Below are positions 8,127 to 58,485 of a stretch of DNA of 64,000 bases, one piece after another. A program made the translations under genes and the position numbers. This DNA comes from an uncultured Actinomycetes bacterium (GTDB taxonomy: Bacteria > Actinomycetota > UBA4738 > HRBIN12), in the NCBI GenBank assembly GCA_963722795.1, contig CAVROD010000004.1, forward strand, positions 203,443-267,442, in the 5' to 3' direction. The notes below the pieces were generated by a model. The model made no database searches. It saw only the letters and a program-made list of their open reading frames with translations, and was not told the origin of the DNA. Position 1 is the stretch's first letter. Every line of letters begins with the position of its first letter.

Positions 8127-8147
8127 GCCGTATCCTCCCAGACACCG

Positions 8148-8417: not shown

Positions 8418-8503
8418 ACTGCCGCTTGGCCCACCCCGCTTGTGAGTTTGTGAACGCTGCCATCACGGCGCTAGTCTGAAGCCATGCAGCGGAGCGCTTC
8501 CCC

Positions 8504-26356: not shown

Positions 26357-26449
26357 CGAGTCCTCTGGGGTCGGGGCGCCCGCGCGGTCGACGGGGCGCG
26401 ACCCATGATAGTGGCGGGTCGGCGTGCCCGGCTGCGAGATACTCCGCAC

Positions 26450-30655: not shown

Positions 30656-30660
30656 GGACC

Positions 30661-38181: not shown

Positions 38182-38187
38182 GGCGCC

Positions 38188-39113: not shown

Positions 39114-40990
39114 TCGATCTCATCGGCCTCGCGATCGTGATCCCGCTCGGCGCGGCGGCCGTGAACATGCTGTTCGGGTCTCGGTTCGCGCGACGGTCGG
39201 GGTGGTTGGCAACCACCGCCCTCACGGCGTCGTTCGCGATCGCGCTGGGCGCCCTGCTCGAGATGCTGTCGCTGCCCGCGGAGGAGCGCACGCAGGTCGT
39301 CACGGTCGTGGAGTGGATCCGTGCCGGCGCCGCCACGGTGTCGCTCGACCTGCGGGTCGACCCCTTGTCGATCACGATGGCGATGGTCGTGACGGGCATC
39401 GGTTCGCTCATCCATCTATACGCGATCGGCTACATGGAGCACGACCCGCGGCCGTGGCGCTTCTTCGGCTACACGAACCTGTTCTGCGCGTTCATGCTCG
39501 CGCTCGTGCTCGCGAACGACTTCCTGCTGCTCTACCTCGGGTGGGAAGGCGTGGGCCTGTGCTCGTACCTGTTGATCGGGTTCTGGTCCGACCGGCCCGA
39601 GGCGGCCCGGGCGGCGAAGAAGGCGTTCATCACGACCCGGGTCGGCGACGTGCTGCTGATGCTGGGGCTGTTCGTGATGTTCATGCACTTCGGCTCGTTC
39701 GACTTCGACACGGTGCTCGGGCACGAGGGCTCGCTGCCCGAGATCGCCGCCGGCACCGCGACCGCGATCTCGTTGCTGCTGCTCGGCGGCGCGGTGGGCA
39801 AGTCGGCGCAGCTGCCCCTGCACGTCTGGCTGCCCGACGCCATGGCGGGCCCGACCCCCGTCTCGGCGCTGATCCACGCGGCCACGATGGTGACCGCCGG
39901 CGTGTACCTCGTGGTGCGCTCCCACGTGCTCTTCGAGATCTCCGATGTGGCACTCACCGTCGTCGCCGTGGTGGGGCTCGCGAGCGCGCTGTACGCCGGG
40001 TTCGCCTCGCTCGGGCAGTACGACATGAAGCGAGCGCTCGCGTACTCGACGATGTCGCAGCTCGGCTTCATGTTCCTGGCGGCCGGCCTCGGCTACTTCG
40101 CGGTCGCGATCTCGTTGCTCGTGGCGCACGCGTTCTACAAGGCGTTGCTGTTCCTCACGTCGGGCAACGTGATGCACGGGCTGCACGACGAGATCGACGT
40201 GCGTCGCCTCGGCGGGCTGCGCCTCGACATGCCGTGGACCGCGGCCCTGTTCGCTGCCGGGGCGCTCGCGCTCTCGGGGTTGCCGCCGTTCAGCGGCTTC
40301 TTCACGAAGGACGCGATCCTCGAGCTCGCGAGCCACGACGGGAAGACGTGGGCCTACCTGCTCGGCTCGCTCGGCGCCCTCGTGTCCGCCTGGTACATCA
40401 CGCGCCTGTACGTCGCGGCGTTCGCCGGCGAGCGGCGGTACGAGGGCCACGCGCACGAGGCGTCGCCGTTGATGCGCGCCCCGCTCGTCGTGCTCGCGAT
40501 CGGAGGGCTGTTCGTCGGTGCCTGGCTGGCGTTCACCCCGGAAGGAAGGCTCGCGACGTTCCTCGAGCCGGTGGTCGGTCACCTCAGCGAGGGCGAGGCG
40601 GGACCCTCGACCGCGACGCTGATCGCGGTCTCGGTCGTGGTGACCCTCGCCGGCATCGGCGTGGCCTGGCTCTTGTACCGCCCCCGCAACGCGGAACGGT
40701 GGATCTCCTTCCCCGAGCGCGAGCCCGCGATGGCCGGCGCGCTCGGGCATGCCTTCTACATCGACGATCTGTACGCCTGGGTCGTCGGCACCGTGGGCCT
40801 CCGGGGCGCGGCGGCCCTCGCGTGGTTCGATCGTGTGGTCATCGACGGTGCGGTCAACGGCGCGGGCCGCCTGGCCGTCATGGCCTCGGGTCTCGCGCCC
40901 ATCTGGCAGTCGGGCAAGGTGCGCCGCTACGCCCTGTCGTTCATGGCGGGCGGGGCGGCGCTGCTCTTCTACGCGGCGGCGAGGGTCTGA
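39110..40990 (+). CDS. nuoL: NADH-quinone oxidoreductase subunit L
   Basis: Antiporter-like, 626 aa, with [28 protein letters not shown]. Confidence 0.9.
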
Positions 40991-42540
40991 TGGACACCGT
41001 GCCCTGGTTGACGCTCGCGATCGCCGCGCCGCTCGTGGGACTGCCGGTGCTCCTGTTCTGGCGCTCGATCTCCGACGATGCGGCGCGGTGGATCGGGCTC
41101 GCCTCGACGCTCACGGCCTTCGTGGTCTCCCTCGGCATGCTCGCGAACTTCGAGTCGGGGCAGGCCGGCTTCCAGATGGTCTCGAAGCACCCGTGGGTCG
41201 AGTCGGTCGGTCTCTCGTGGTTCGTCGGCGTCGACGGCTTCTCGATCTGGCTCGTGATGGTCACGACGTTCATGTTCCCCATCGCGGTCGCGGCGTCGTG
41301 GAAGGTCGACCATCAGGTGCGCCGCTACATGGCGATGTCGCTGTTCCTGGAGACCGTGATCATCGGCGCGTTCCTGTCGCTGGACCTGCTGCTGTTCTTC
41401 GTGTTCTTCGAGGCCCTGCTGTTCCCGATGTACTACATCATCGGGGTGTGGGGCTCGAAGCGGCGCGTGTACGCCGCCACGAAGTTCCTGCTGTACACGA
41501 TGTTCGGCTCGGCGTTCCTGCTCGTGGGCATCCTCTACCTGTACGTGGAGTCGGGGCGCCAGCTCGGCGCGGCGACCTTCGATCTCACGGCGCTCGAGCA
41601 GCTCGAGCTGTCGACGAGCGCAGGACGGTGGCTGTTCCTCGCCTTCTTCATCGGGTTCGCCGTCAAGGTGCCGGTGTGGCCGCTGCACACGTGGTTGCCC
41701 GACGCCCACACCGAGGCGCCGACGAAGGGCTCGATCGTGCTGGCCGCGATCCTGCTGAAGACGGGGCCCTACGGCATGTTGCGGTTCAACCTCGACCTGT
41801 TCCCCGAGGCGGCGCAGTACTTCGCCACCGCGATCATGGTGCTCGCGGTCATCGGCATCATCTACGGGGCTGTGGTGGCGATGATGCAGACCGACATCAA
41901 GCGGCTCATCGCGTACTCGTCGGTGAGTCACATGGGGCTCATCGTGCTCGGCATCTTCGCGTTCTCGGCCGAGTCGATGGACGGCGCCGTGATCCAGATG
42001 GTGAACCACGGTCTCAGTACGGGCATGTTGTTCCTCGTGTTCGGCATGCTGTACGAGCGCACGCACACGCGCGAGATCGCCGACCTCGGCGGCATCGTGC
42101 AGGTCACGCCGTGGCTCGCGGGCGCCTACGTGATCGCGATGCTGTCGTCGATCGGCCTGCCCGGGCTCAACAACTTCGTGGGCGAGTTCCTCGTGCTGCT
42201 CGGCACCTTCTCGGTCGACCGGGTGCTGGCGTCGATCGCCATCGTCGGCGTGATCCTCAGCGCCGTGTACATGCTCTGGTCGTACCAGCGCACGTTCCAG
42301 GGCTCCCTGAAGGACCGGTGGGCCTCGTTGCCGGACCTGAGCTGGCGAGAGGGTGCGATCGTGGCGCCGATCGTCGTTGCGATGCTCTGGATCGGTCTGC
42401 ATCCGGCGCCGGTGCTCGAACGGCTGCGACCGACCTCGGAGCAGGTGTCGGAGCGCATGGCTACCTTCGAGCCGACGACCATCTCGACCACCGCCGGCAC
42501 GACGGTCCCCGGCGATCCCACGGGCGGGGAGGCGCCGTGA
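40990..42540 (+). CDS. nuoM: NADH-quinone oxidoreductase subunit M
   Basis: Antiporter-like, with WPLHTWLPDAHTEAPTKGSIVLAAILLKTGPYG. Confidence 0.9.
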   Translation: MDTVPWLTLAIAAPLVGLPVLLFWRSISDDAARWIGLASTLTAFVVSLGMLANFESGQAGFQMVSKHPWVESVGLSWFVGVDGFSIWLVMVTTFMFPIAVAASWKVDHQVRRYMAMSLFLETVIIGAFLSLDLLLFFVFFEALLFPMYYIIGVWGSKRRVYAATKFLLYTMFGSAFLLVGILYLYVESGRQLGAATFDLTALEQLELSTSAGRWLFLAFFIGFAVKVPVWPLHTWLPDAHTEAPTKGSIVLAAILLKTGPYGMLRFNLDLFPEAAQYFATAIMVLAVIGIIYGAVVAMMQTDIKRLIAYSSVSHMGLIVLGIFAFSAESMDGAVIQMVNHGLSTGMLFLVFGMLYERTHTREIADLGGIVQVTPWLAGAYVIAMLSSIGLPGLNNFVGEFLVLLGTFSVDRVLASIAIVGVILSAVYMLWSYQRTFQGSLKDRWASLPDLSWREGAIVAPIVVAMLWIGLHPAPVLERLRPTSEQVSERMATFEPTTISTTAGTTVPGDPTGGEAP

Positions 42541-43982
42541 GCGACGCCCCGCGCGTGGAGCTGTGGGCGATCCTGCCCGTGTTGATCCTGTTCGGCGGGG
42601 CGCTCGTGGCGCTGCTCGGCTCGGCGTTCGCCCGGCGCGGCGCCCAGGCCCCGTTCGTGCTGTTCACGCTCGCCGTGCTCGCCGCCGCATCGGCCTCGGC
42701 GCTCTGGCTCTGGGACCGCGAACCCGTCACCGTGCTGGAGGGCATGGCGAGCGTCGACCGGCTCGCCGTCGTGGGCACCCTCATGCTCTGCGGCATCGGG
42801 GCCTTCGCTGCCTACCTCGGGTTCCACTACTTCGAGCGTGACGAGTTCCGGCGCAACGAGTTCTACGCGTTGGTGCTCTTCGCCCTCGGGGGCATGGCGC
42901 TGCTCGTGGCCGCCGCCGACCTCATCGTGGTGTTCCTCGCGATCGAGGTGCTCTCGCTCTCGCTGTACGTGCTCACGGCGCTCACGTTCCGCCGCGGGCC
43001 CGCCGAGGCCGCGATGAAGTACTTCCTGCTCGGGGCGTTCGCCTCGGCGTTCCTGCTCTACGGGGTCGCGATGAGCTACGGCGCGGCGGCGACGACGAGC
43101 ATCCAGGGCCTCGCGCGCGCCCTCGCCGGCGGGGGGGACAGCCGGGCGCTCGCGATCGCCGGGGCGCTCTTGCTCGTGGTCGGCCTCGGGTTCAAGGTCT
43201 CGCTCGTGCCGTTCCACATGTGGACGCCCGACGTGTATCAGGGCGCGCCGAGCCCCGTGACCGCGTTCATGGCCGCCGCGACGAAGGTGGCGGTGTTCGT
43301 CGTGCTCGTGCGCGTGCTCGACGTGGCGTTCAGCCCGTTGCAGTGGGATCTCGCGCCCGCCGTAGCGGCCCTGTCGGCCGTCTCGATGGTCGTGGGCAGC
43401 GTGCTCGCGATCGCCCAGCGCGACGTGAAGCGCATGCTGGCCTACTCGAGCATCGCCCAGGCCGGGTTCATCCTGTCGGCGTTCGTCTCGCCCGACAGCG
43501 AGGCGATCGCGGCGGCGTTGTTCTATCTGATCGCCTACGGCGCTGCCGTGCTCGGCGCCTTCGGCGTCGTGATGCTCATCTCCGGCGGCATCCGCGAGCA
43601 GACCGGCTTCGACCGGTTCCGGGGCCTCGGCCGGCGGCAGCCCGCGCTGGCGGTGCTGCTCACGGTGTTCCTGCTCTCGCTCGCGGGCATCCCGCCGACC
43701 GCCGGGTTCGCGGCCAAGGTGCTCGTGTTCGGGGCGGCGACGAACGCGGGGTACTGGCCGCTCGTGCTGATCGGGGCCCTCGCGAGCGTGGTCGGAGCCT
43801 TCTTCTACCTGCGGGTCGTCGCCCTCATGGCGATGCAGGAACCCGAGGGCGACGACGTCGCCGACCCCTCCCCGCTGCCTCGCCTCGTGCTGGCCGTGCC
43901 CGCGCTGTCGGTCATCGTGCTGGGTATCGTGCCGGGTGTGCTCGTGCCGCTGCTGCAGGAAGCCGGGGTCCTCTCGTGGTGA
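42537..43982 (+). CDS. nuoN: NADH-quinone oxidoreductase subunit N
   Basis: Antiporter-like, with FHMWTPDVYQGAPSPVTAFMAAATK. Confidence 0.9.
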   Translation: MSDAPRVELWAILPVLILFGGALVALLGSAFARRGAQAPFVLFTLAVLAAASASALWLWDREPVTVLEGMASVDRLAVVGTLMLCGIGAFAAYLGFHYFERDEFRRNEFYALVLFALGGMALLVAAADLIVVFLAIEVLSLSLYVLTALTFRRGPAEAAMKYFLLGAFASAFLLYGVAMSYGAAATTSIQGLARALAGGGDSRALAIAGALLLVVGLGFKVSLVPFHMWTPDVYQGAPSPVTAFMAAATKVAVFVVLVRVLDVAFSPLQWDLAPAVAALSAVSMVVGSVLAIAQRDVKRMLAYSSIAQAGFILSAFVSPDSEAIAAALFYLIAYGAAVLGAFGVVMLISGGIREQTGFDRFRGLGRRQPALAVLLTVFLLSLAGIPPTAGFAAKVLVFGAATNAGYWPLVLIGALASVVGAFFYLRVVALMAMQEPEGDDVADPSPLPRLVLAVPALSVIVLGIVPGVLVPLLQEAGVLSW

Positions 43983-43989
43983 GGTGCGC

Positions 43990-45000
43990 ATGAGCCGTCG
44001 CGTGATCCCGGGCCTCGAGGCGCCCGACGCCACCCTGGAGGCCGAGGTGCGCACCCGTCTCGACCAGGTCGAGCAGGCGCTGGAGAAGTCGGTGCACGCC
44101 GAGGCCTCGGGCATGCTCACCGAGACCTCGTCGTACCTGATCGCGGCCGGTGGCAAGCGGTTCCGGGCGATGCTGGTGCTGCTCGCCGGCTACTTCGGCG
44201 ACCCGGCCGACCCGCGGCTCGTGCCGGGCTCGGTCTCGATCGAGCTCGTGCACCTCGCCACGCTCTACCACGACGACGTGATCGACGAGGCCGATGCCCG
44301 GCGCGGGGCGCCGAGCGCGAACGTGCGCTGGGACAACACGGTCGCGATCCTCACGGGCGACTTCTTGTTCGCGCGGGCCTCGGAGATCTCGACCGATCTC
44401 GGCACCGACGTCTGCCGCCTGCTCGCCCGCACGATCGCGGTGCTGTGCGACGGTCAGATCCGAGAGGTCGACAGCTCGGCCAAGGTCGAGCAGGAGGTCT
44501 CGAACTACCTCGAGATCATCCGCCGCAAGACGGCGTCGCTGATCGCGACCTCGTGCCGGCTCGGCGGCATGCTCTCCGACGCCGCGCCCGAGGCGGTCGA
44601 GGTGCTCGACGAGTTCGGCGACGCGCTCGGCATGGCCTACCAGCTCTCCGACGACATCATGGACATCACCTCGTCGCAGATGGAGCTCGGCAAGGAGCCC
44701 GGCCAGGACCTCCGCGAGGGCGTCTACACGCTGCCGGTGCTGCACGCCCTGGCCCACGACGAGCATCGCGAGGAGCTCTCGCGCATCCTCTCCCACGGCT
44801 CGCCCGACGGCGAGATGCTCGATCGCGCCCTCGAGATCGTGCGGTCGGGGGGCTCGGTCGACGTGGCCCGCGCGGCCGTGACCGACGAGGTCAGGCGGGC
44901 GACGCGGCTCGCCGAGCGACTGCCCGAGGGACCGGCTCGCCACGCCTTGATCCAGCTCGCGAAGTTCCTGGCCGCCAGGTGCGGCGCGGAGGCCGGATGA
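43990..45000 (+). CDS. polyprenyl synthetase family protein (long-chain, menaquinone side-chain type)
   Basis: Asp-rich motifs LYHDDVIDEAD and YQLSDDIMD. Immediately follows nuoN. Confidence 0.85.
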   Translation: MSRRVIPGLEAPDATLEAEVRTRLDQVEQALEKSVHAEASGMLTETSSYLIAAGGKRFRAMLVLLAGYFGDPADPRLVPGSVSIELVHLATLYHDDVIDEADARRGAPSANVRWDNTVAILTGDFLFARASEISTDLGTDVCRLLARTIAVLCDGQIREVDSSAKVEQEVSNYLEIIRRKTASLIATSCRLGGMLSDAAPEAVEVLDEFGDALGMAYQLSDDIMDITSSQMELGKEPGQDLREGVYTLPVLHALAHDEHREELSRILSHGSPDGEMLDRALEIVRSGGSVDVARAAVTDEVRRATRLAERLPEGPARHALIQLAKFLAARCGAEAG

Positions 45001-45073: not shown

Positions 45074-45439
45074 ATGAGCGATTACTACGCGTCGTACGGA
45101 GTGGTGCTGGCGGTCCTGACCGCGGGTGCGCTGCTGGTCGCCGTGGCGTTCACCGCGGCGCGTCTGATCGCCCCGAACCGGCCAAGTCGCGAGAAGCTCC
45201 TGACCTACGAATGCGGCATCGATCCGGTCGGACAGGGGTGGTCGCAGAGCCACGTGCGCTACTACGTGTACGGCTTCCTGTTCGTCATCTTCGACGTCGA
45301 GAGCGTGTTCCTCTTCCCGTGGGCGAGGGTCCTCGAGGACATCGGGTACGCGGCCGTGGTGGAGATGGCGATCTTCATCGCGATCTTGGCCGTCGGGCTG
45401 CTCTACGCGTGGCGCAAGGGGGTCCTGCGGTGGGCCTGA
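45074..45439 (+). CDS. nuoA2: NADH-quinone oxidoreductase subunit A, second copy
   Basis: Contains YECGIDP...[22 protein letters not shown]. Confidence 0.85.
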
Positions 45440-45936
45440 TCACCGAGAAGACCGCGCTGCCGCGCATCCAGCCCGTGAAGTTCATCCTCAACTGGGGGCG
45501 CCGCTACTCCCTGTGGGTCATGAACTTCGGACTCGCGTGCTGCGCGATCGAGTTCATCGCCGCGTCGACCGCCAAGAACGACTTCATCCGCCTCGGTGTC
45601 ATCCCCACGGCCCACGGCCCGCGCCAGGCCGACCTGCTCGTGGTGGCCGGCACCCTCACCGACAAGATGGCCCCGGCGCTCAAGCGCGTGTACGAGCAGA
45701 TGCCCGACCCGAAGTACGTGATCTCGTTCGGCTCGTGCTCCAACTGCGGCGGCCCCTACTGGGACAGCTACTCCGTGACCAAGGGCGTCGACCAGATCGT
45801 GCCCATCGACGTGTACGTGCCGGGGTGTCCGCCGCGGCCCGAAGCGCTGCTGCACGGCATCCTGGAGCTGCAGCGCAAGATCAAGGACGAAGACATCGCG
45901 GAGAAGTTCGGTGGCCCGGCATCCGCGGCGTTCTGA
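45430..45936 (+). CDS. nuoB2: NADH-quinone oxidoreductase subunit B, second copy
   Basis: Contains [20 protein letters not shown] and VPGCPP. Confidence 0.85.
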
Positions 45937-45946
45937 TGGGGGCGCG

Positions 45947-46471
45947 GTGAGCGGCGCCGGCACCCTGGCGCTCGACGATGCCGCCTCGCGGCTTCGGGCT
46001 CGATTCGGCGACGACCTGCTCGAGGTGGCCGAGCAGCACGGCCACCTCGCGGTGTCGGTGACGCCCGCCCGCTACCACGACGTCTGCCGATTCGTGCGCG
46101 ACGAGCCCGAGTTCGACTGTGACTACGCCGACTTCACCACAGGCGTCGACCGAGGCGACGACGGCGGGTTCGAGGTCGTGACCCATGTCTTCTCGACGAC
46201 CCATCACCACAACGTGCGCGTGAAGGTGACGCTGCCACATGACGAGCCCGCCGTGGCGACCGTGAGCGACCTGTGGGCCACATGCGACTGGCACGAACGT
46301 GAGACCGCGGAGATGTTCGGCATCCGGTTCGAGGGCCACCCCCAGCCCGTGAAGCTGTTGCTCTCCGAGCCGTTCGAGGGACATCCGCTGCGCAAGGACT
46401 TCGCGCTCATGACGCGCGAGGCCAAGCCCTGGCCCGGCGCGTCCGAGGGCGAGGAGGACGACGAGGCATGA
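45947..46471 (+). CDS. nuoC2: NADH-quinone oxidoreductase subunit C, second copy; no nuoD-like gene follows
   Basis: Contains CDWHERETAEMFGIRFEGHP. 174 aa, so it is not a C-D fusion. Its stop overlaps the nuoH2 start (ATGA). Confidence 0.8.
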   Translation: MSGAGTLALDDAASRLRARFGDDLLEVAEQHGHLAVSVTPARYHDVCRFVRDEPEFDCDYADFTTGVDRGDDGGFEVVTHVFSTTHHHNVRVKVTLPHDEPAVATVSDLWATCDWHERETAEMFGIRFEGHPQPVKLLLSEPFEGHPLRKDFALMTREAKPWPGASEGEEDDEA

Positions 46472-47481
46472 TCGACGTGGTCGCCACCTCGGGCGTCTCG
46501 TTCATCGAGGAGCTCACGTCCAACTTCTGGCTCTCGCTGGTGCTGAAGACGGTGCTGGTCATGGCCTTCTTCCTCATCGTGCCACTCGGGGTGGGCTACA
46601 TGGAGCACAAGGTGCTGGCGCACATGCAGTCGCGTCTCGGACCCATGGAGGCGGGCGCCTTCCACGGCTGGGCGCAGCTCATCGCCGACGGCGTGAAGTT
46701 CATCCAGAAGGAGAACGTCGTGCCGGCGGCGGCCGACCGCACGATCTACTCGCTGGCGCCGGCGGTGGCGATGGTGCCCTACATCGCGATCCTCGTCGTG
46801 CTGCCCTTCAGTGACACGCTGTTCGCGCTCGATCTCGACATCGGCATCTTCTTCGTGATGGCCATGTCGAGCGTGTCGGTGATCGGCGTGCTCATGGCAG
46901 GGTGGTCGAGCGCCAACAAGTTCTCGCTGATCGGGGCTTTGCGCGCGGCCGCGCAGCTGATCGCCTACGAGCTGCCGCTCGTGCTGGCCGCTGCGGGCGT
47001 CGTGATGCTCTCGGGCGTGACCTCGATGGTCGGCATCGTCGAGGCGCAGGAATCGCTCTGGTACGTGATCCCGCTGTTCCCGCTGTTCGTGATCTTCATG
47101 CTCGCCTCGCTCGCCGAGCTGAGCCGCACGCCCTTCGACATGCCGATCGCCGACTCCGAGATCATCTTCGGCGCCTACACCGAGTACGGGGGGCTGAAGT
47201 TCGCGTTCTTCCTGCTCGCCGAGTACGGGGGCATCGTGGCGCTCTCGGGCGTCGCCGCCGTGCTGTTCCTCGGCGGCTACCAGGGCCTGCCGGGCATCCC
47301 GCTCCCCGACCCGATCTGGATGGCGGGCAAGATCGGCGTGCTGTCGTTCTTCGTGATCTGGCTGCGGGCCACCTACCCGCGCCTGCGCGAGGACCAGCTG
47401 CAGCGGTTCGCCTGGCTCACGCTCATCCCGATCTCGCTCCTGTGGATCCTGGGCGCCGCCGTCTTCAAGGTCGCCTTCTAA
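46468..47481 (+). CDS. nuoH2: NADH-quinone oxidoreductase subunit H, second copy
   Basis: Contains SRLGPMEAG..GWAQLIADGVKFIQKE and ELSRTPFDMPIADSEIIFGAYTEYGG. Confidence 0.85.
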   Translation: MIDVVATSGVSFIEELTSNFWLSLVLKTVLVMAFFLIVPLGVGYMEHKVLAHMQSRLGPMEAGAFHGWAQLIADGVKFIQKENVVPAAADRTIYSLAPAVAMVPYIAILVVLPFSDTLFALDLDIGIFFVMAMSSVSVIGVLMAGWSSANKFSLIGALRAAAQLIAYELPLVLAAAGVVMLSGVTSMVGIVEAQESLWYVIPLFPLFVIFMLASLAELSRTPFDMPIADSEIIFGAYTEYGGLKFAFFLLAEYGGIVALSGVAAVLFLGGYQGLPGIPLPDPIWMAGKIGVLSFFVIWLRATYPRLREDQLQRFAWLTLIPISLLWILGAAVFKVAF

Positions 47482-47502
47482 CCGACAAGGACGAACGACA
47501 CC

Positions 47503-48036
47503 GTGGCCATCGACCGAACGCACATCGACCAGCCCGAATCGGGGGTCGGCCAGGGCCTGCTCAAGGGCCTCGCGGTCACGATGAAGACGATGCTGCGCCC
47601 GGCGGTCACGGTGCAGTACCCGCACGTGAAGCCCGATCTGCCGGCGCGCACGCGCGGCGTCATCGCCCTGAAGCAGGAGAACTGCACCGTCTGCTACAAG
47701 TGCTCGCGCGAGTGCCCCGACTGGTGCATCTACATCGACGCCCACAAGGAGACCCACGAGCCGGCGGGCGGGGGCCGCGGGCGCTCGATGAAGGTGCTCG
47801 ACCGTTTCGCGATCGACTACGCCCTGTGCATGTACTGCGGCATCTGCGTCGAGGTGTGCCCGTTCGATGCCCTCTTCTGGAGCCCCGAGTTCGAGTACGC
47901 GGAGTACGAGATGGACCTGCTCATCCACGAGAAGGAGCGTCTCGAGGAGTGGACGTACACGGTGCTGCCGCCGCCCGCCTTGGAGGTCGGCGCCGAGCCG
48001 AGCGCCGACGCCCTCGTGGCGGAGGAGACCGCGTGA
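47503..48036 (+). CDS. nuoI2: NADH-quinone oxidoreductase subunit I, second copy
   Basis: Contains [12 protein letters not shown] and [12 protein letters not shown]. Confidence 0.85.
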
Positions 48037-48533
48037 GCGCACAGGAGTACGCCTTCTGCGTGCTGGCCGTCGTCGGCGGTCTGGCGGCCATCGCCGTGGT
48101 GACCGTGCGCAACGTCGTGCACGCGGCCCTGTACCTGGTGGTCTCGCTGCTCTCGGTCGCCGGGGTGTACCTGCTGCTCGGCGCCGAGTTCGTGGCCTGG
48201 GTGCAGATCCTGATCTACGTCGGTGCGATCGTGATCTTGTTCCTGTTCGGCTTGATGCTCACGAAGGCCCCGATCGGGCGCGATGCGCTCGACAACCAGC
48301 AACGCTGGCTCGGCGCACTCGTGGGCGTGGGCGTGTTCGCCGGGCTCGTGTTCCTGATCCAGCGGGCCTATCCGGTGCAGGACGCCGTGGCGTTCCGAAC
48401 GGTCGAGGGCACGACCGACGTCGTGGGCGAGGCGATCTTCCGCCACTACGTGCTGCCGTTCGAGGCCGTGTCGTTCCTGCTGCTGGCGGCCCTGATCGGC
48501 GCCATCGTGCTCGCCCGCAAGGACGACGCATGA
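48033..48533 (+). CDS. nuoJ2: NADH-quinone oxidoreductase subunit J, second copy
   Basis: Contains [48 protein letters not shown]. Confidence 0.85.
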
Positions 48534-48832
48534 TCCGGCTGCCGCTGGTGCTGATGTTCTCGGCCCTGCTGTTCTCCGCAGGGGTCTACGGGGTGCTCGC
48601 CCGCCGCAACGCGGTGATGGTGCTCATGGCGATCGAGCTGATGCTGAACGCCGTCAACGTGAACCTGGTCGCCTTCGCGGCCTCGCTGCAGGAGATGACG
48701 GGGCAGGTCTTCGCGCTGTTCGTGATCGCGGTGGCCGCCGCCGAGGTCGGCATCGGTCTCGCGATCGTCATCTTGCTGTTCCGCACGCGCGAGTCGATCA
48801 ACGTGGACGAGGTGAACCTGCTCAAGTGGTGA
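48530..48832 (+). CDS. nuoK2: NADH-quinone oxidoreductase subunit K, second copy
   Basis: Contains [26 protein letters not shown]...[17 protein letters not shown]. Confidence 0.85.
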
Positions 48833-50826
48833 CCGCGCTGGCGTCCGAGGGGGAGGCGGCCTTCAAGGCCACGACCGACGGCATCTGGTTCGTCGAGCAT
48901 GCCTGGATCGTGGTGCTGCTGCCGCTGATCTCGTCGGCGCTCATCCTGTTCTTCGGCAAGCGCACGCCCGGCAAGGGGGCGGTGATCGGCATCACCGCGG
49001 TGGCCGCCGCGTTCGCGTTCTCGCTCGGCGTGCTCTGGCACTTCGTGGAAGGCGGGGGGCCCTTCGAGGCGAGCGTCGATTGGTTCACGGTCGGGCCGCT
49101 GCATCTGGAGCTCGGCATCCTCGTCGACGGACTCACCGCCATCATGCTCGTCGTCGTCACCTCGGTCTCGCTCTGCGTGCACGTCTACTCCCTCGGGTAC
49201 ATGCACGGCGACGAGCGGTTCACCTGGTTCTACGTGGTGCTCTCGCTGTTCACCGCCGCGATGCTCACCGTGGTCGTCTCGAACAACCTGATCCAGCTGC
49301 TCGTGGGCTGGGAGGTCATGGGCGTCTGCTCCTACCTGTTGATCGGGCACTGGTGGGAGGTCAAGGAGAACTCGAACGCCGCGATCAAGGCGTTCATCAC
49401 CACGCGCATCGGCGACATCCCGTTCATGTTCGGCATCATCATGCTCATCGCGCTCACCGGGTTCGAGACGACGAACATCGCCGAGATCTCGCACGAGTTG
49501 GGGGTCGGGGTGGCCTCGCCGCTGTTCGTCTCGATGGCGGCCATCCTGTTGTTCGGCGGCACGGTCGGGAAGTCGGCGCAGTTCCCGTTGCACGTGTGGC
49601 TGCCCGACGCGATGGCAGGTCCCACGCCCGTGTCGGCCCTGATCCACGCCGCCACCATGGTGGCGGCGGGCGTCTACCTGATCGGGCGCCTGTTCGAGGT
49701 GTTCCTGCAGGCCGAGCCGTGGGTGCTCACCACGGTCAGCATCGTCGCCGCGATCACCGCGCTCGGCGCCGCCCTGCTGGCGATCGTGCAGGACGACATC
49801 AAGCGTGTGCTCGCCTATTCGACGCTCTCGCAGCTCGCCTACATGGTGGCGGGGCTCTCCCTCGGCGAGCTGGGGCTCACCGCGGGGTTCTTCCACCTGT
49901 TCACCCACGCCTTCTTCAAAGCCCTGCTCTTCCTCGGGGCGGGCTCGGTGATCCACGCCGTGCACTCCAACAACATGAGCGACATGGGGGGCCTGCGGAA
50001 GTCGATGCCCGTCACGTTCTGGACGATGCTGATCGGCTCGCTCGCGCTCGCGGGCATCTTCCCGCTGGCCGGCTTCTGGTCGAAGGACGAGCTGCTCGTG
50101 GTCGCCGAGGAGGAGCATGTGACCTGGCTCTTCGTCGTCTTCCTCATCACCGCGGTGATCACCGCCTTCTACACGATCCGTATGGTGCTGCTCACGTTCT
50201 TCGGGGAGTACAAAGGGCAGGCGCACCCGCACGAATCGCCCCGTACGATGACCGGCCCGCTCGTCGCGCTCGCCGCCGCCACGATCGGGGTGGGCCTCCT
50301 CGGCTCGCCGCAACTCGGCGCCGTGTTCGGCAAGTGGGTCTTCTACGACGCGATCCACGAGGCCGTCTTCGTGCCGTGGATCGCGCTGCTGTCGACGGCC
50401 GGCGCGCTGCTGGGCCTGGCCGCGGGCTGGGCTCTCTACAAGGAACGGAAGCAACAGGACCCGCTGCAGGCCCCGATGGGGCCGCTGTGGAACGTGCTCG
50501 AGCACCGCTACTACATCGACGCCTTCTACATGCGGGCGATCGTCTACCCCGTGCGCGACACCTGGTCGGGGGCCGTCAACTGGTTCAATCAGACGGTGAT
50601 CGACGGCGTCGTGAACGGCGCCGCCCTGCTGGCGAGAGGCTTCGGTCAGGTGGTCGCCTGGTTCGACCGCTCGGTGATCGACGGCGTCGTGAACGGTGCT
50701 GGCGAGACCGCCGGGCGTACCGGCAACGTGCTGAAGTACCTGCAGACGGGCAACGTGCAGTGGTACGCCGTCGCGCTGTTCGTCGGCGTGATCGCGATGG
50801 CCGTCGTGTTCATCCGAGTCGTTTGA
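48826..50826 (+). CDS. nuoL2: NADH-quinone oxidoreductase subunit L, second copy
   Basis: 666 aa, with [28 protein letters not shown]. Confidence 0.85.
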
Positions 50827-50845
50827 GAGGAAGCGTGGAGGCCAC

Positions 50846-52382
50846 ATGACCTGGGAGAACTCGGCCATCACGATCACCACGATGCTGCCCATCGTCGGCG
50901 CGCTGGTGATCGTGCTGATGCCACGGGGCAAGGACCGCGCGATCCGCGGTCTCGGCATCGTGTTCACGGGGGCGGCGCTCGTGCTCGCGATCGCGATCGC
51001 GATCGGGTTCGACTACGGCACCGATGGCCTGCAGTACGTGCTCGACGTGAACTGGATCAGCGCGATCGGGGTGCGCTACCACGTGGGCATCGACGGCATC
51101 TCGCTGCCCCTCTACGTGCTGACCTTCCTGCTGTCGTTCCTCTGCGCGATCTACAGCTGGCGCTACGTGCCCGACCCGGGCCGCACGAAGGCCTTCCTCG
51201 CACTGATGCTGCTGCTCGAGACCGGCATGGCGGGCACGTTCATCGCGTTCGACCTGATCCTGTTCTTCGTGTTCTGGGAGATGGTGCTCGTGCCGATGTA
51301 CTTCCTCATCGCCGTCTGGGGTTCGGCGAACCGCGAGTACGCCTCGATCAAGTTCTTCCTCTACACGCTGTTCGGGTCGATCTTCATGCTGCTGGGCTTC
51401 CTCGCGATGTACTTCCAGGGGCCCGACCCGCACACGTTCGACATGGTGGTGCTCCGCGACTTCGGCATCGCGGGCGGCTTCACGTCAGTCGTTCCAGCTG
51501 ATCGTGTTCGGAGCCGTTGCGCTCGGCTTCGCGGTGAAGGTGCCGATGTGGCCGTTCCACACGTGGCTGCCCGACGCCCACACCGAGGCCCCGACGATCG
51601 GCTCGGTGCTGCTGGCCGGCATCATGCTGAAGATGGGCACCTACGGGTTCATCCGCATCGCGATCCCGATCCTGCCCGACGGCGCCCAGAAGTACGCACC
51701 GTGGATCGGTGCGCTCGCCGCGATCGCCATCGTGTACGCAGCGCTCGCGTGCCTCGCGCAGAAGGACCTGAAACGCCTCATCGCGTTCTCATCGGTCGGG
51801 CACATGGGCTTCGTGATGCTCGGCATCGCGACCCTCACCGAGATCGGCATCCAGGCAGCCATCTTCGGCATGGTGGCCCACGGCGTGATCACGGGCATGC
51901 TGTTCTTCTGCGTCGGCTCGATCTACGACCGCTACCACACGCGCGAGATCGCGAAGATCGGGGGCGGCATGCTGCAGGCGATGCCGAAGCTCGGCAGCGT
52001 CTTCGCCTTCGTGGCGATCGCTTCGCTCGGCCTGCCCGGGCTCGCCGGGTTCTGGGGTGAGGTGATGGCGCTGCTCAGCTCGTTCAGCCCGAACGAGGTC
52101 CTGTTGGCGGACCAGGTGGGTCTGTTCCGTGTGTTCATGGTGATGGGGGGCATCGGCACCGTGCTCACGGCCGGCTACTTCCTGTGGATGCTGCAGCGGG
52201 TGAACATGGGCACCGTGCCCGACCAGTGGCGCGAGGCGGGGCTGCGCGACGTGCTGGTGATCGAGTGGGTGTCGTGGGTGCCCCTGCTGCTGTTGACCCT
52301 GGTGCTCGGGTTGTACCCGCGACTCGTGTTCGGTGTCACCGACGAGGCCGTGAACGGCCTCATGCAGCTGTTGGGGAGCTAG
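50846..52382 (+). CDS. nuoM2: NADH-quinone oxidoreductase subunit M, second copy, one frame switch near 51490
   Basis: Contains WPFHTWLPDAHTEAPTIGSVLLAGIMLKMGTYG. The N-terminal 215 aa lie in a different frame from the rest. Confidence 0.8.
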
Positions 52383-52391
52383 GTCGCCTCG

Positions 52392-53864
52392 ATGGACGTC
52401 GACTACCACGCCCTGCTGCCCGAGTTCATCCTCGCGGGCACGATCCTGCTCGTGCTGGTCGTCGACGTGTTCCTGCCTGAGCGCACGAAGTGGCTCGCGA
52501 TGCCGATCGGGCTCCTCGGGGTGGTCGCGTCGTTCGTCGCGGTGCTCACGCTTATCGGCGCCGACACCCGCATCAGCTTCGGCGGATCGTACGTGGTCGA
52601 CGAGTTCGCGCTGCTGTTCAAGGGGTTCTTCCTCGTGGTGGCGAGCGTGGTGCTGGCCCTGTCGCTGCGGTACTTCCGCGAAGGCGGGTTCTATCAGGGC
52701 GAGTACTACTTCCTGCTGCTCACCTCGTTCCTCGGCTGCGTGATGATGCCGAGTTCGCGCGACCTGCTGCTGCTGTTCATCGCGCTCGAGCTCGTGTCGG
52801 CACCCGGGTTCCTGATGGCTGCGTTCCGCAAGGGCGACGTGAAGTCGAACGAGGCGGGCGTGAAGTTCTTCATCATCGGCGTGTTGTCGACGGCCGTGAT
52901 GCTCTTCGGCATGAGCCTGATCTACGGCGTGACGGGCGGTCAGACGCAGCTCGCCGAGATCGCGGTCGCCCTCGACGGCGTGACGGGCGACCTCGAGACT
53001 CTGGCGTTCGCGGCCATCCTGTTCGTCGTGGTGGGCTTCGCGTTCAAGGTGTCGGCGTTCCCGTTCCAGTTCTGGGCGCCCGACACGTATGAAGGGTCGC
53101 CGGTGCCGGTCGCGGCGTTCCTCGCGGTCGCCTCGAGCGTGGCGGGCTTCGCAGGCCTGTTGCAGCTGATGTTCGTGGCGTTCGCGGGCCAGCACGAGTT
53201 CTGGGTGCCGATCTTCGCGTTCCTGTCGATCGCGACGATGACGGTGGGCAACTTCGTGGCGCTGCAGCAGACGCAGGTCGTGCGGCTGCTCGCGTACTCG
53301 GGCATCGCGCAGTCGGGCTACATCTTGATGACCTTCGCCCTGGTGACCGACGACGCCACGTCGAATCGCGATGCGTTCGCCGCCGGAGTGGCCTACATCC
53401 TGATCTACGGCATCATGAACCTGGGAGCCTTCGCGGCGACCGTCGCCGTGTCGCGGCGCCACCCGGCGCTGCAGGTGGCCGACTTCGCCGGTCTGCGGGA
53501 GACCGCGCCGATCATCGCGGTCGGCATGGCCGTGTTCATGATCTCCCTCGCGGGCGTGCCGCCGACCGGTGGGTTCTGGGGGAAGCTGCTCATCTTCCAG
53601 GCGGCGATCGAACGCGGCGGCACCCTCGGGCCGGCACTCGCCGTGGTGATGCTCGTGAACTCGGTCGTGAGCGTCTTCTACTACCTGGTCGTGCCCCGGC
53701 AGATGTTCCTGCGTGACGCCGCCGACCGTTCACGGCTGCGCGTGCCGGGCCTCGTGACGGCCGTCGTCGTGCTCGCGATGATCGCGATCCTCGCGATCTT
53801 CGTGTTGCCGAACGCCGTCGCGCGGCTGGCCGAGATCTCCACGCTGGTCGGCCTCGGGCCGTAA
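52392..53864 (+). CDS. nuoN2: NADH-quinone oxidoreductase subunit N, second copy
   Basis: Contains FPFQFWAPDTYEGSPVPVAAFLAVASS. 490 aa. Confidence 0.85.
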   Translation: MDVDYHALLPEFILAGTILLVLVVDVFLPERTKWLAMPIGLLGVVASFVAVLTLIGADTRISFGGSYVVDEFALLFKGFFLVVASVVLALSLRYFREGGFYQGEYYFLLLTSFLGCVMMPSSRDLLLLFIALELVSAPGFLMAAFRKGDVKSNEAGVKFFIIGVLSTAVMLFGMSLIYGVTGGQTQLAEIAVALDGVTGDLETLAFAAILFVVVGFAFKVSAFPFQFWAPDTYEGSPVPVAAFLAVASSVAGFAGLLQLMFVAFAGQHEFWVPIFAFLSIATMTVGNFVALQQTQVVRLLAYSGIAQSGYILMTFALVTDDATSNRDAFAAGVAYILIYGIMNLGAFAATVAVSRRHPALQVADFAGLRETAPIIAVGMAVFMISLAGVPPTGGFWGKLLIFQAAIERGGTLGPALAVVMLVNSVVSVFYYLVVPRQMFLRDAADRSRLRVPGLVTAVVVLAMIAILAIFVLPNAVARLAEISTLVGLGP

Positions 53865-53945: not shown

Positions 53946-54832
53946 ATGACGGTGACACCAGGTATCAACAGGGCCAAGACGTGGGTCCTGATCGCGGCGA
54001 TGATGGGCCTGTTCCTGGCGATCGGCGCGTTGCTGGGCGGACGGGCCGGCGTGACGACGGCACTCGTGCTGGGGCTGGGCTTCAACTTCGCCATGTACTG
54101 GTGGTCGGGCTCGATCGCGGTTCGCTCGACCCGCTCGCGCGAGGTGGGGGAGGCCGAGTACCCGCACTGCATCGCATCGTCCGCGAGCTGGCGCAGGCCA
54201 ACGACATGCCGATGCCGGGCGTCTACGTCTCCGACATGCAGCAGCCCAACGCCTTCGCGACCGGTCGCAACCCGCGCAACGCCAAGGTCGCCGTGACGCA
54301 GGGCATCCTGCAGATCCTCGACGAGCGCGAGTTGCGCGGCGTGCTCGCGCACGAGCTGAGCCACGTCGCGAACCGCGACATCCTGGTCGGTTCGGTCGCC
54401 GCGGCGATCGGCACCTCGATCAGCTACCTCGCCTGGATGGCGCTGTGGTTCGGCGGTGACGACGAGGGCGGGAACCCGATCGTCGCCCTCGTCGCGTGGA
54501 TCCTCGCGCCGATCGCCGCCGGTCTGATCCAGATGGCGGTGTCGCGTTCACGCGAGTTCCAGGCCGACGAGTCGGGGGCGTTCCTGTCCCGCGATCCGTC
54601 GGCGCTGGCGAGCGCGTTGCAGAAGCTCGACCAGACGAGCCGGCGGGTACCGCCGCCCCACTCGCTGCAGCCCGGAGAGGCGCACATGTTCATCGTGAAT
54701 CCGCTCGCGGCGCTGAAGGGCCGCGGCCTCACGAGCCTGTTCTCGACGCATCCGCCGACCGAGGAACGGGTCGCGCGGCTGATGGCGATGCAGGACGAGG
54801 TGTACCGCCGGCAGGGACCGATCGGGAACTAG
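53946..54832 (+). CDS. htpX: zinc metalloprotease HtpX (M48 family), one frame switch near 54120
   Basis: Two N-terminal TM helices and an HELSH zinc motif (GVLAHELSHVANRD). Confidence 0.8.
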
Positions 54833-55015: not shown

Positions 55016-56398
55016 CTACGACGCCATCGTCCCAAGCACCGCTCGCACATGATCGATGGTCGTGCGTGGGTTCACGAAGCACAGCCGTGCGAGCTTCTCG
55101 CCCTTCCACGTGGTCGGCTGCACGAAGGCGATCTGCGCCTCGAGCAGCCTTCGCCACCAGGCTTCGTAGTCGGCGTCGCCCCAGCCTCGCCGGCGGAAGA
55201 GCACGACCGACAGCTCGGGGTCCATCACGAGCTCGAGCTCGGGCCGCGCCGAGATCTCCCCGGCCGTCTCGCGCGTGAGCGTCAGCACGCGCTCGATCGC
55301 GTCGCGGTAGGCGTCGGTGCCGTAGGTCGCGAGCGAGAACCACAGCGGGAGCCCCCGGGCGCGTCGGGACAGGTGGTAGGCGTAGTCCGCCGGATTCCAC
55401 TCGCTCCAGGCGGCGTCGGGCTGGTTCACCGTGTCGAGGTAGCCGGCTTCCTGCCGGAACACCCCGTACGCGGCGGTGGGGTCGCGGTAGACCAGAGCGC
55501 AGCAATCGTAGGGCGCGAACAGCCACTTGTGCGGGTCGACGATGAACGAGTCGGCACGCTCGATGCCGCGGTAGCGCTCGCGCACCGAGGGCGCCGCGAG
55601 CCCGGCACCGCCGTAGGCCCCGTCGACGTGGAACCAGACCCCGTGACGGTCGCAGGCCTCGGCCACGCCCGCGAGGTCGTCGACCGTGCCCGCGTTCGTG
55701 GCGCCTGCGCTCGCGACGACCGCGACGACGCTCGCCGCTTCGTCGGGGCCGAGCGTGTCGAGCGTGGCGGCGAGGGCATCGCCGGTGAGCCGCCCGCGTT
55801 CGTCGCCGGGCACGTCCACGACGCCCACGTCGATCACGCGGGCGGCGGTGGCGACCGAGGAATGCACGCTGTCGGCGACCGCGATCTTCCAGCCGGTGGC
55901 CGGGCGTCGGCCGAGGCGGGCGGCCGCTCGCGCCCGGGCGGCGACCAGGGCCGAGAGATTGCCCGCCGAGCCGCCGCTCACGAAGACGCCGCCGGCCCCA
56001 TCGGGGAAGCCGGCGAGGTCGGCGAGCCAGCGCAGCGCCTGGTTCTCCGCCCAGATCGCCCCGGCGCCGTCGATCCAGCCCGCGGCGATCGTCGACGAGG
56101 CGCCGACCACGAGGTCGAAGAGCACCGCGGCCTTGGTGGGCGCGCCCGGCACGAACGCCATCGAGGAGGGGTGGTCGGTCGAGATCGTGGCGGGAGCGAG
56201 CACCTCGCTCCACACGCGCAAGGCCTCCTCACCGCCGATGCCCTCGGGCGTGACGGTCGCGCCGGCGCGCCGGGCGAGCTCGTCGCCGCTCGCCGAGCCG
56301 TCGAGCGGCTGCGGGCTCGCGATGCGGTTGCGCGCGTACGTCACGATCGCGTTCGAGAGCGCCTCGGTCTCGTCGGTGTAGCGGTGCATGTCGTCCAT
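55016..56398 (-). CDS. group II pyridoxal-phosphate-dependent decarboxylase (aromatic amino acid / L-2,4-diaminobutyrate decarboxylase family)
   Basis: PLP-Lys motif SFIVDPHKWLFAPYDCCALVY. 461 aa, intact. Starts MDDMHRYTDE. Confidence 0.8.
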   Translation of the reverse strand: MDDMHRYTDETEALSNAIVTYARNRIASPQPLDGSASGDELARRAGATVTPEGIGGEEALRVWSEVLAPATISTDHPSSMAFVPGAPTKAAVLFDLVVGASSTIAAGWIDGAGAIWAENQALRWLADLAGFPDGAGGVFVSGGSAGNLSALVAARARAAARLGRRPATGWKIAVADSVHSSVATAARVIDVGVVDVPGDERGRLTGDALAATLDTLGPDEAASVVAVVASAGATNAGTVDDLAGVAEACDRHGVWFHVDGAYGGAGLAAPSVRERYRGIERADSFIVDPHKWLFAPYDCCALVYRDPTAAYGVFRQEAGYLDTVNQPDAAWSEWNPADYAYHLSRRARGLPLWFSLATYGTDAYRDAIERVLTLTRETAGEISARPELELVMDPELSVVLFRRRGWGDADYEAWWRRLLEAQIAFVQPTTWKGEKLARLCFVNPRTTIDHVRAVLGTMAS

Positions 56399-56475
56399 CG
56401 TTTCACCCCCGCATACGCGAAGGGCCGGCCCGAAGGCCGGCCCGCCGCGTCTGGTCGCTACCCGTCCGCGCGTGG

Positions 56476-57859
56476 TTACGCGGTCAGCTCCTGGCAGAAC
56501 GCGCCGAAGGCCTCGACGTAGATCTGCACGTCGCTCTCGGTGTGCTGCACGGAGACCGTCCACTGCTCCTCGTCGCCCGGGGTCATGAAGATGCCGCGGT
56601 TGACCATCCACGGGTACGACGCCCAGTAGATCTCTGGGATCGTCTCCAGGAAGTCCCGGTAGTTGGCGAGCGGCTCGCTCCGGTAGGAGACGCAGCCCTT
56701 CGCGCCGAGGTCGACCGTGTGCGCCGGGATGCCGCTGTCGGCGATGGCCCGGTTGCACCCTTCGGCCAGCATCGTGCCGAGCTTGCCGAGGTGGTCGTAG
56801 GCGTCGCGCGTGAGCACCTGCGTGAGCGCCGCGAGCCCCACCGCCGAGGAGAGCGGGTTGCCGTTGAAGGTGCCTTGCTGGGCGGCGCCCTTCGTCACGT
56901 ACTCCATGATGGCCGCATCGCCGCCGAAGGCGCCGGTGGTGGCGCCTCCGCCGATGGCCTTGGCCCACGCGGCGAGGTGCGGCACCACGCCGAAGCGCTC
57001 TGCGGCGCCGCCGTAGGCGATCGTGCCGCCGCACTTGACCTCGTCGAAGATGAGCACCGCGCCGTGACGCTCGCAGGCGTCCTTGAGCGCCTGCAGGTAC
57101 CCGTCGTGCGGCACCACGATGCCGATGTTCATCATGACCGGCTCGAGGATGACCGCCGCGATCTCGACCGGGGTTGTCGGTGAAGGCGGCCTCGACGGCC
57201 GATGCGTCGTTGAAGGGCACGATGATCGTCGTGTCCCACAGCGCCTGTGGCACGCCCTTCGATGTCGGCTGCGTGGTGTACCACGGCTTCCCGCTCTCAT
57301 CGACGCTATGCCGAAGGTCGAGCACGTCGGCCTCGGGCACGACCGAGAACAGCACCGAGTCGTGATGGCCGTGGTAGGAGCCTTCCATCTTGATGATCTT
57401 GTCGCGGCCGGTCGCGGCCCGGGCGACCCGGATCGCGTCCATCGTGGCCTCGGTGCCCGAGTTCACGAACCGCATCTGCTCGCACTGGAACCGCGAGCAG
57501 ATCTCCTCGGCGAGCGCGACCGTGGTCTCGGTGGTGACCGCGAAGTGGATCGCGTCGTCGGCCGCCTTCTTGATGGCTTCGACGATCTTCGGATGGGCGT
57601 GCCCGACGACGTTGACGCCGAACCCGCCGTGGAAGTCGGTGTAAAGGTTGTCGTCGACGTCGGTGACCGTGGAGCCCTTGCCGTGCTTGAGGTACACGGG
57701 ATAGGGGTCGCCCGCCTGGAAGTTCGAGACCACGCCGTTGGGCAGGGTCTTGATCGCCCGCTGGTACAGCCGTTCACTCGCCTGGGTCCGACCCAGCCAT
57801 TCCTTCGTTTCCTTCTCGGCGATCTCCGCCGCGCGCGCCTTCAACCGGTCGAGGTCCAC
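56476..57859 (-). CDS. class-III aminotransferase (glutamate-1-semialdehyde 2,1-aminomutase-like), one frame switch near 57180
   Basis: SD AGGAGG 8 nt upstream of GTG. N-terminus LPNGVVSNFQAGDPYPVYLKHGKGSTVTDVDDNLYTDFHGGFGVNVVGHAHPKIVEAI follows the HemL-like pattern. Confidence 0.75.
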
Positions 57860-57921
57860 GCGTATCACCTCCTGAGTCGCGCCAGGGTACTCGGGGGCGA
57901 GGTCGCCCCGCAATGGGGCCG

Positions 57922-58419
57922 TCAGGGCCGGTAATTCGTGAACTGCAGCGCCAGCCCGAAGTCGTGGTCCTTCACGGCTCGGATCGCGGCCTGCAGGTCG
58001 TCCTTGCTCTTGCCGAGCACCCGCACCTGTGCGCCCTGGATCTGGGTCTGGATCTTGGGCACCGCCTGGCGCACGAACTTCGATATCTCCTTGGTCTTCT
58101 CGTCGGAGATGCCGGTGACGATGGTGACCGTCTGGCGTGCCGTGCCCTTGGCGGCGTCCTCGATGGAGCCAGCCTGCAGCGCCTTGAGCGGGATGTTGCG
58201 CTTCACGGCGCGCTCCTGCAGCACCTGCCAGGCCGCCTTGAGTCGATCCTCGGTGGCCGAGTGCATCTCGATCGTGCCGTCGCCGAGCTCGATCGACGTG
58301 CCCGTGCCCTTGAAGTCGAACCGCTGGGAGATCTCGCGCCCGGTCTGGTCCACCGCGTTGCGCACTTCCTGCAGGTCGACCTCGGAGACGATGTCGAAGC
58401 TGAACTGATCTTTCGCCAT
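57922..58419 (-). CDS. yajQ: YajQ-family (UPF0234) nucleotide/c-di-GMP-binding protein
   Basis: Starts MAKDQFSFDIVSEVDLQEVRNAVDQ and ends KIQTQIQGAQVRVLGKSKDDLQAAIRAV, matching E. coli YajQ end to end. 165 aa. Confidence 0.85.
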   Translation of the reverse strand: MAKDQFSFDIVSEVDLQEVRNAVDQTGREISQRFDFKGTGTSIELGDGTIEMHSATEDRLKAAWQVLQERAVKRNIPLKALQAGSIEDAAKGTARQTVTIVTGISDEKTKEISKFVRQAVPKIQTQIQGAQVRVLGKSKDDLQAAIRAVKDHDFGLALQFTNYRP

Positions 58420-58485
58420 GGCCGAAGGATACCGCCCGGGCGGTGCGGGCCACCCCGCCGGTTCGCTATCCTCGGTGAGCACCAC

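Follow-up and report, generated by a model that had tools for sequence, protein, structure and literature searches.

A second complex I gene cluster without nuoD in an uncultured Actinomycetota lineage: a nuo2-type arrangement with a probable unlinked NuoD2

Genes and layout of the second nuo cluster

The stretch analyzed here, referred to as the window, comprises 64 kb of the genome of an uncultured Actinomycetes bacterium (contig CAVROD010000004.1) with a G+C content of about 70%, and all window searches were confined to these 64 kb. It carries a first, full nuoA-N operon at 29177-43982 (+ strand) and, downstream of it, a second set of complex I genes on the + strand at 45074-53864 in the order nuoA2-B2-C2-H2-I2-J2-K2-L2-M2-N2. 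An earlier reading of this DNA, made without database searches (the sequence-only reading), had described a ten-gene cluster that follows a polyprenyl synthase gene and holds no gene for NuoD or for NuoE, NuoF, and NuoG. Our gene calls for the second cluster, which combined Pfam and NCBIfam profiles with direct reading of the translations, bear out that content: no nuoE, nuoF, or nuoG lies within the cluster, and ten of the eleven genes of the complex I core are present, with D the one lacking. The description falls short in one respect, as nuoM2 is not one open frame, an extra base near 51483 having escaped that reading. The features are as follows, with product lengths in amino acids (aa).

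30661-31948, + strand: nuoD1 of the first operon, the sole NuoD homologue of the window, with a +1 frameshift at 31537
43936-45000, + strand: polyprenyl diphosphate synthase, between the two nuo clusters (PF00348, E=2e-64)
45074-45439, + strand: nuoA2, 121 aa, FDVE motif kept (PF00507, E=1e-36)
45430-45936, + strand: nuoB2, about 166-169 aa, start approximate and overlapping the end of nuoA2 (PF01058; NuoB subfamily NF005012)
45947-46471, + strand: nuoC2, 174 aa, or 186 aa from a GTG at 45911 (PF00329 only)
46468-47481, + strand: nuoH2, 337 aa (PF00146, E=8e-100)
47503-48036, + strand: nuoI2, 177 aa, two 4Fe-4S motifs (Fer4 families and NuoI)
48033-48533, + strand: nuoJ2, 166 aa (NF005168, NuoJ)
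48530-48832, + strand: nuoK2, 100 aa (NuoK models)
48826-50826, + strand: nuoL2, 666 aa (PF00662 and PF00361; NF005141, NuoL, 628 bits, above cut-off)
50846-52382, + strand: nuoM2, 511 aa after removal of one inserted base (two PF00361 pieces in different frames)
52392-53864, + strand: nuoN2, 490 aa (PF00361; TIGR01770, NuoN, 378 bits, above cut-off)
53952-54832, + strand: htpX-like M48 peptidase, directly downstream of nuoN2, with a frameshift near 54165 (PF01435)

The junction between nuoC2 and nuoH2 at 46462-46475 reads GAGGCATGATCGAC. Here the TGA stop of nuoC2 (46469-46471) overlaps the ATG at 46468, and the ATGA at 46468-46471 thus serves as the stop of one gene and the start of the next. 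Because of this overlap, there is no space for a D gene at the position. The sequence-only reading had described the same ATGA overlap and a 174-aa, NuoC-only product, and both points agree with the junction as we read it and with the single PF00329 domain. NuoC2 is therefore not a fused NuoCD, in which PF00329 and PF00346 stand on one polypeptide. Searches of the 64 kb by tblastn, using NuoD1 and also a genuine NuoD2 as queries, returned nuoD1 only.

The translations carry many of the residues expected of complex I subunits. NuoB2 has the four Cys ligands of cluster N2 (CC...C...C) together with PGCPP, NuoI2 has two CxxCxxCxxxCP motifs, and NuoK2 retains both membrane glutamates (IELMLNA and AAAEVG). 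The best solved relative of NuoH2 is NuoH of M. smegmatis (8e9g_H). NuoL2 is antiporter-like with a long C-terminal extension, and FFKALLF is among the motifs found in it. Judged by eye from the translations, NuoA2, NuoK2, NuoL2, NuoM2, and NuoN2 appear to have the charged membrane residues typical of these subunits, the motifs spotted being WE..G, K(S/V).., HxWLPDA, the NuoK2 Glu pair, and the NuoA2 FDVE. At the C-terminal end of NuoC2, this clade shares the motif M[TS]REAKPWPG, after which comes the acidic tail EGEEDEEE; this end might be a docking site. Between 43800 and 54200, no promoter or terminator signal rose above the chance level.

Conservation and ancestry of the cluster

Relatives were sought by scanning one genome per species. 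This gave 193, and the best 80 of these are all uncultured Actinomycetota metagenome-assembled genomes (MAGs); statements about loci refer to a set of 86 related loci. The gene order A2-B2-C2-H2...N2 without D is present in every one of the 86 loci, and in 80/80 related species. In 84 loci, at most 66 nucleotides separate the C2 alignment from that of H2, and the other two are broken H2 alignments. NuoD was sought up to 10 kb around NuoC2 at each locus, and no homologue was found within that distance across the 86; an adjacent D2, which the sequence-only reading had considered, is accordingly not seen in relatives either. Its second suggestion, a C-D fusion truncated in this assembly, fares no better among NuoC2 homologues (n = 3897): the best 120, from which lengths and domain content were taken, all measure 161-193 aa and contain PF00329 only. 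The surroundings are conserved as well, with metagenome contigs repeating the layout nuoG...N, polyprenyl synthase, A2 B2 C2 H2...N2, M48 peptidase, and with both the position of the polyprenyl synthase and that of htpX downstream of nuoN2 kept in related contigs.

The ten genes of the second cluster are under strong purifying selection. Measured against the orthologues in one relative (L004), the ratio of nonsynonymous to synonymous substitution rates (dN/dS) is 0.06-0.14 across all ten, with 0.10 for nuoC2 and 0.08 and 0.07 for the two halves of nuoM2. A comparison of NuoB2 ligands for cluster N2, which the sequence-only reading had proposed, found the motifs kept in 86/86 loci with small substitutions. 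The second cluster is thus a working, selected set of genes and neither a relic nor an assembly artefact. As a separate observation, NuoB2 of this clade reads GSC(S/A)NCGG, with an extra Cys two residues past an N2 ligand, in 86/86 loci; canonical NuoB and the NuoB2 of Nonomuraea (GACSNSGG) have a single Cys at this site.

Whether the cluster is a recent duplicate or an older module can be judged from its distance to the first operon. Identity between the second cluster and the nuo1 of the same window is 40% for A, 51% for B, 38% for C, 42% for H, 31% for I, 38% for J, 45% for K, 37% for L, 39% for M, and 38% for N. Because the subunits share only 31-51% identity, the nuo1/nuo2 duplication is ancient, and the two clusters are distinct. 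The whole chromosome of Nonomuraea gerenzanensis (NZ_LT559118.1) offers a useful comparison, since it contains a canonical operon (L098) and, about 55 kb past its end, a D-less nuo2 cluster at approximately 1.209-1.225 Mb with the order A2...B2 C2 H2...I2 J2 K2 L2 M2 N2. Against this nuo2, the window cluster shows identities of 55% for A, 75% for B, 42% for C, 57% for H, 65% for I, 54% for J, 64% for K, 42% for L, 51% for M, and 41% for N. Since these are far closer than the window's own nuo1, the two clusters are orthologous, and on these identities the second cluster represents the actinobacterial nuo2 cluster in this lineage.

The missing 49-kDa subunit and its alternatives

The sequence-only reading had offered three ways out for a module with B and C but no D, namely borrowing NuoD from the first operon, using an unlinked paralogue, or having a different catalytic partner. 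The list itself is right, and the evidence favors the unlinked paralogue. We consider it likely that an unlinked nuoD2, located in another part of this genome, supplies the missing 49-kDa subunit, which is our best-supported inference and not a demonstration. The case is built on Nonomuraea, where a search with a distant NuoD query recovered an orphan nuoD2 of 384 aa at 471028-472179, about 740 kb from nuo2 and adjoining folK, folB, and folP. Its product shares 38% identity with the NuoD1 of the window and retains the quinone-site His (QHPSTHG) and Tyr (GYMHRG). It is without a segment around MEALIHHFK, which amounts to about 41 residues relative to the window NuoD1 and about 20-30 relative to NDUFS2 and NdhH. 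That segment is carried by canonical 14-subunit NuoD, NDUFS2, and NdhH, and the short form of NuoD is common to the orphan D2 and to the in-operon D of three unrelated 11-subunit clusters (L091, L092, and L099).

The D2 proteins form their own family, whose representative (P0252) is 76% identical to the Nonomuraea protein, and the solved structures that match D2 best include NdhH (6hum_H). We compared six D2 contexts (L088, L089, L090, L095, L096, and L097). In 6/6, nuoD2 is an orphan in a folK, panC, or lysS neighborhood, and in 6/6, Nonomuraea included, a PF02636 (NDUFAF7/MidA-like) methyltransferase gene lies within a few kb of it. The pairs are located as follows, in coordinates of each locus.

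L088, about 2661-3614 and 7953-9107: nuoD2 and PF02636 pair
L089, 8596-9396 and 10001-11203: nuoD2 and PF02636 pair
L090, 7480-8421 and 10001-11221: nuoD2 and PF02636 pair
L095/L096, 2420-3409 and 6001-7203: nuoD2 and PF02636 pair
L097, 4418-5392 and 6001-7203: nuoD2 and PF02636 pair

NDUFAF7 dimethylates Arg85 of NDUFS2. In our alignment, this methylated residue lines up with the Arg of the D2 motif HRG, while the window NuoD1 carries Thr at that position (LHTG). It seems that D departed from the nuo2 operon along with the methyltransferase that putatively modifies it, and the simplest history is that they did so in an ancestor. By analogy with these relatives, a nuoD2 of the window's lineage would probably also adjoin an NDUFAF7-like methyltransferase, and its product would be expected to share about 60-70% identity with known D2 proteins.

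Several other candidates for D2 were set aside. A wide hunt compared the N-terminal part of NuoD1 with 1.84 billion representative proteins. Candidates chosen by the amino acid composition typical of GC-rich genomes were mostly frameshifted NuoD1 fragments, and P0235, P0231, and P0143 were rejected as in-operon D subunits of unrelated 11-subunit clusters.

Together with a D2-type subunit, the ten products would make up a complex I-like enzyme of 11 subunits that does without the NADH module (NuoE, NuoF, and NuoG). Electrons would pass from NuoI2 (N6a/N6b) to NuoB2 (N2) and on to (mena)quinone bound between NuoD2 and NuoH2, and NuoL2, NuoM2, and NuoN2 are predicted to pump protons. The donor would then be something other than NADH delivered through NuoEFG, with reduced ferredoxin and F420H2 as the obvious candidates. 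Elsewhere, a 2-oxoacid:ferredoxin oxidoreductase gene (korA) stands upstream of the Nonomuraea nuoA2 (L087, 5230-7077), and a pyruvate:ferredoxin oxidoreductase (PFOR) gene stands downstream of an unrelated 11-subunit operon (L092, 18882-21227). The placement of such oxidoreductase genes beside clusters without an N-module hints at ferredoxin as the donor. No 2-oxoacid:ferredoxin oxidoreductase gene was found in the window or the related loci, so that korA offers no pointer to the donor in this lineage, and no PFOR lies near the window's cluster.

A number of observations weigh against an unlinked nuoD2 and the enzyme built around it. A nuoD2 of the window's own lineage was found neither in the 64 kb nor among the best 120 matches to a D2 profile; those matches come only from Nocardioidaceae/Propionibacteriales or Nonomuraea-like organisms, and none shares a contig with a window-type NuoC2. 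The NDUFAF7-like (PF02636) gene is absent from the window and from the 86 loci. The placement of nuo2 directly behind nuo1, with one gene between, would be compatible with co-expression and with a sharing of parts as well. Finally, the electron donor and the proton pumping proposed above are predicted from homology alone.

Some of these points feed the first alternative, in which nuoD2 is absent from the lineage and NuoD1, possibly with NuoEFG, joins the nuo2 products, to give two isoforms around one 49-kDa subunit. The second cluster lies directly downstream of nuo1 in the same orientation both here and in relatives, no D2 is seen in the 64 kb or the 86 loci, none of the D2 proteins recovered could be tied to this lineage, and for Streptomyces a hybrid of the nuo and nuo2 machinery has been proposed (PMC9239103). 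We nevertheless regard such a hybrid as unlikely. Relatives with an orthologous D-less cluster own a dedicated orphan D2, D1 and D2 are just 38% identical, and D2 is without a segment of 20-40 residues that D1 has. The subunits that contact D are also very different in the two clusters (identities of 51% for B, 38% for C, 42% for H, and 31% for I), and the cluster retains a NuoC2 of its own, NuoD binding being the chief function known for this subunit.

A change of partner further predicts accelerated divergence from the Nonomuraea nuo2, and none was observed. Between the window and Nonomuraea, the D-contacting subunits of nuo2 and nuo1 share, respectively, 75 versus 70% (B), 42 versus 41% (C), 57 versus 47% (H), and 65 versus 64% (I) identity. 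That the nuo2 subunits are at least as conserved as those of nuo1 speaks against an exchange of the D partner in this lineage. The idea that NuoC2 evolved faster to fit NuoD1 was likewise rejected, as the conservation of C is just as low in nuo1 (41%) as in nuo2 (42%). That the large uncultured clade has truly lost nuoD2, so that Nuo2 shares the single NuoD1 (perhaps also NuoEFG) with the adjacent operon, appears to us rather improbable. If true, the loss would imply that complex I exists in two isoforms with a common 49-kDa subunit, between which the membrane arm and part of the Q-module are exchanged.

A complex that does without D altogether and has another catalytic partner or job, for example a redox-driven or antiporter-type module without a canonical quinone pocket, is highly improbable. 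It would account for the lack of a D gene linked to the cluster, and the function of nuo2 has been termed unclear (PMC9239103). But the N2 ligands of NuoB2, the NuoI2 clusters, and a full-length NuoH2, all under purifying selection, make sense only around a NuoD-type subunit, and a fitting family of orphan D2 proteins is present in relatives.

Decay of the second cluster into a nonfunctional duplicate would draw on the nuoM2 frameshift, in which one extra base near 51483 splits the gene into frames 50846-52060 and 51504-52382. This extra base has no counterpart in three relatives (L004, L007, and L010) in the DNA alignment, and NuoM2 orthologues are intact at 511 aa. Both halves of nuoM2 evolve at a dN/dS of about 0.08, and the cluster is intact in 80 species. 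Similar shifts affect essential genes nearby and point to sequencing error: nuoD1 has a comparable +1 shift at 31537, nuoG (about 35860-36069) and htpX (about 54165) are also shifted relative to a short-read relative, and the htpX alignment to the L004 orthologue falls in two frames. The four single-base shifts occur within about 25 kb, or roughly one per 5-6 kb, and the affected genes are intact in relatives. Because all four fall in respiratory or housekeeping genes over so short a distance, and because the clade consists mostly of long-read soil MAGs, we attribute them to sequencing error and not to decay; the single-nucleotide insertions in nuoM2, nuoD1, nuoG, and htpX are most likely long-read errors, and decay is scarcely credible. 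Loss or truncation of a nuoD2 or C-D fusion by mis-assembly has a negligible chance of being right, for although the window clearly holds indel errors, the C2-H2 junction is the same in 84/86 independent loci, short-read assemblies included, and NuoC2 homologues are uniformly about 170-190 aa long.

Given these residual indel errors, pseudogene calls anywhere in the window need caution. The match of cytochrome oxidase subunit I begins at profile position 97, and that gene is probably frameshifted too. A pyridoxal phosphate-dependent decarboxylase and a class III aminotransferase appear merged in one long open reading frame (ORF) with broken frames at 55016-58453 (- strand); in relatives, the decarboxylase and the aminotransferase are two separate genes downstream of htpX. 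The region upstream of the first operon (8504-29160) is a respiratory island that also carries CtaG, a cupredoxin protein, and a thiol-disulfide oxidoreductase, in addition to the following.

8504-9202: Rex-like redox repressor
11519-12118, - strand: cytochrome b fragment
19201-20370: cytochrome oxidase subunit I
24530-27277, - strand: CtaA-CtaB (COX15-UbiA) fusion ORF
27910-29160: flavin adenine dinucleotide-dependent geranylgeranyl-reductase-like gene, just before nuoA

Comparison with known systems

The absence of NuoD that had been flagged as a puzzle already has an ordinary, published explanation, and the novelty of the arrangement is not borne out. In Streptomyces, a D-less nuo2 cluster has been reported in which the set comprises nuoA2, B2, D2, and H2-N2, with nuoD2 encoded separately (PMC8388888; PMC3765725), and nuo2 proteins have been detected in S. 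coelicolor (PMC9739823). There, as in the window, a second cluster (SCO4599-SCO4608 in S. coelicolor) exists besides a full nuoA-N operon and has no nuoD, nuoE, nuoF, or nuoG inside. The D-less cluster described here is thus the known nuo2 arrangement, now seen in a further uncultured lineage, and does not represent a novel type of enzyme. It means that a D-less nuo2 is not peculiar to Streptomyces but is an old, selected feature of Actinomycetota, and it adds a species-rich uncultured soil clade in which nuo2 stands right behind the canonical operon. The link between an orphan nuoD2 and an NDUFAF7-like methyltransferase gives genetic work a concrete starting point. What keeps the cluster of some interest is the partner D of nuo2 (NuoD2 versus NuoD1), its electron donor, and its physiological role, which are questions in the Streptomyces literature too; one idea raised there is a hybrid with the canonical complex (PMC9239103).

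The actinobacterial clusters differ mainly in placement. The window cluster follows nuo1 directly after one gene, while the Nonomuraea nuo2 is about 55 kb away, and the Streptomyces nuo2 occupies a separate chromosomal location (PMC3765725), where the SCO numbers (PMC9739823) imply about 23 locus tags from nuoN to nuoA2. Nonomuraea shares the D-less architecture and has 41-75% identity per subunit to the window cluster, but its gene run is broken by insertions at two places, after A2 (before B2) and after H2 (before I2), whereas the ten genes of the window are contiguous. Some Streptomyces papers list the cluster without NuoC; in the window and in Nonomuraea, NuoC2 is clear.

More distant likenesses come from enzymes without the NADH module. 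Cyanobacterial and chloroplast NDH-1 (ferredoxin) and archaeal Fpo (F420H2) resemble the predicted enzyme in having the A, B, C, D, and H-N core without NuoEFG, and they set an example for the use of other electron donors. Near the window cluster, however, no gene resembling NdhS/O/V or FpoF was seen, and the cluster's similarity to NDH-1 and Fpo does not exceed that to ordinary complex I. The eleven-subunit "ancestral" complex I (Moparthi and Hagerhall 2011, PMC3144371) is alike in having no N-module and in keeping the same gene order except for D, although the 11-subunit clusters sampled here are only 27-59% identical to the window cluster. In Ca. Actinomarina, such an operon, nuoABCDHIJKLMN-NDUFAF7-htpX, has been described beside heliorhodopsin (bioRxiv 10.1101/2021.02.01.429150). 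The window likewise has a heliorhodopsin gene (PF18761, E=8e-89) at 60897-61568 (- strand), 7 kb downstream of nuoN2. In Ca. Actinomarina, D stands between C and H and NDUFAF7 comes after N, both of which are absent from the window cluster; the two arrangements share htpX, which follows NDUFAF7 in the one and nuoN2 in the other.

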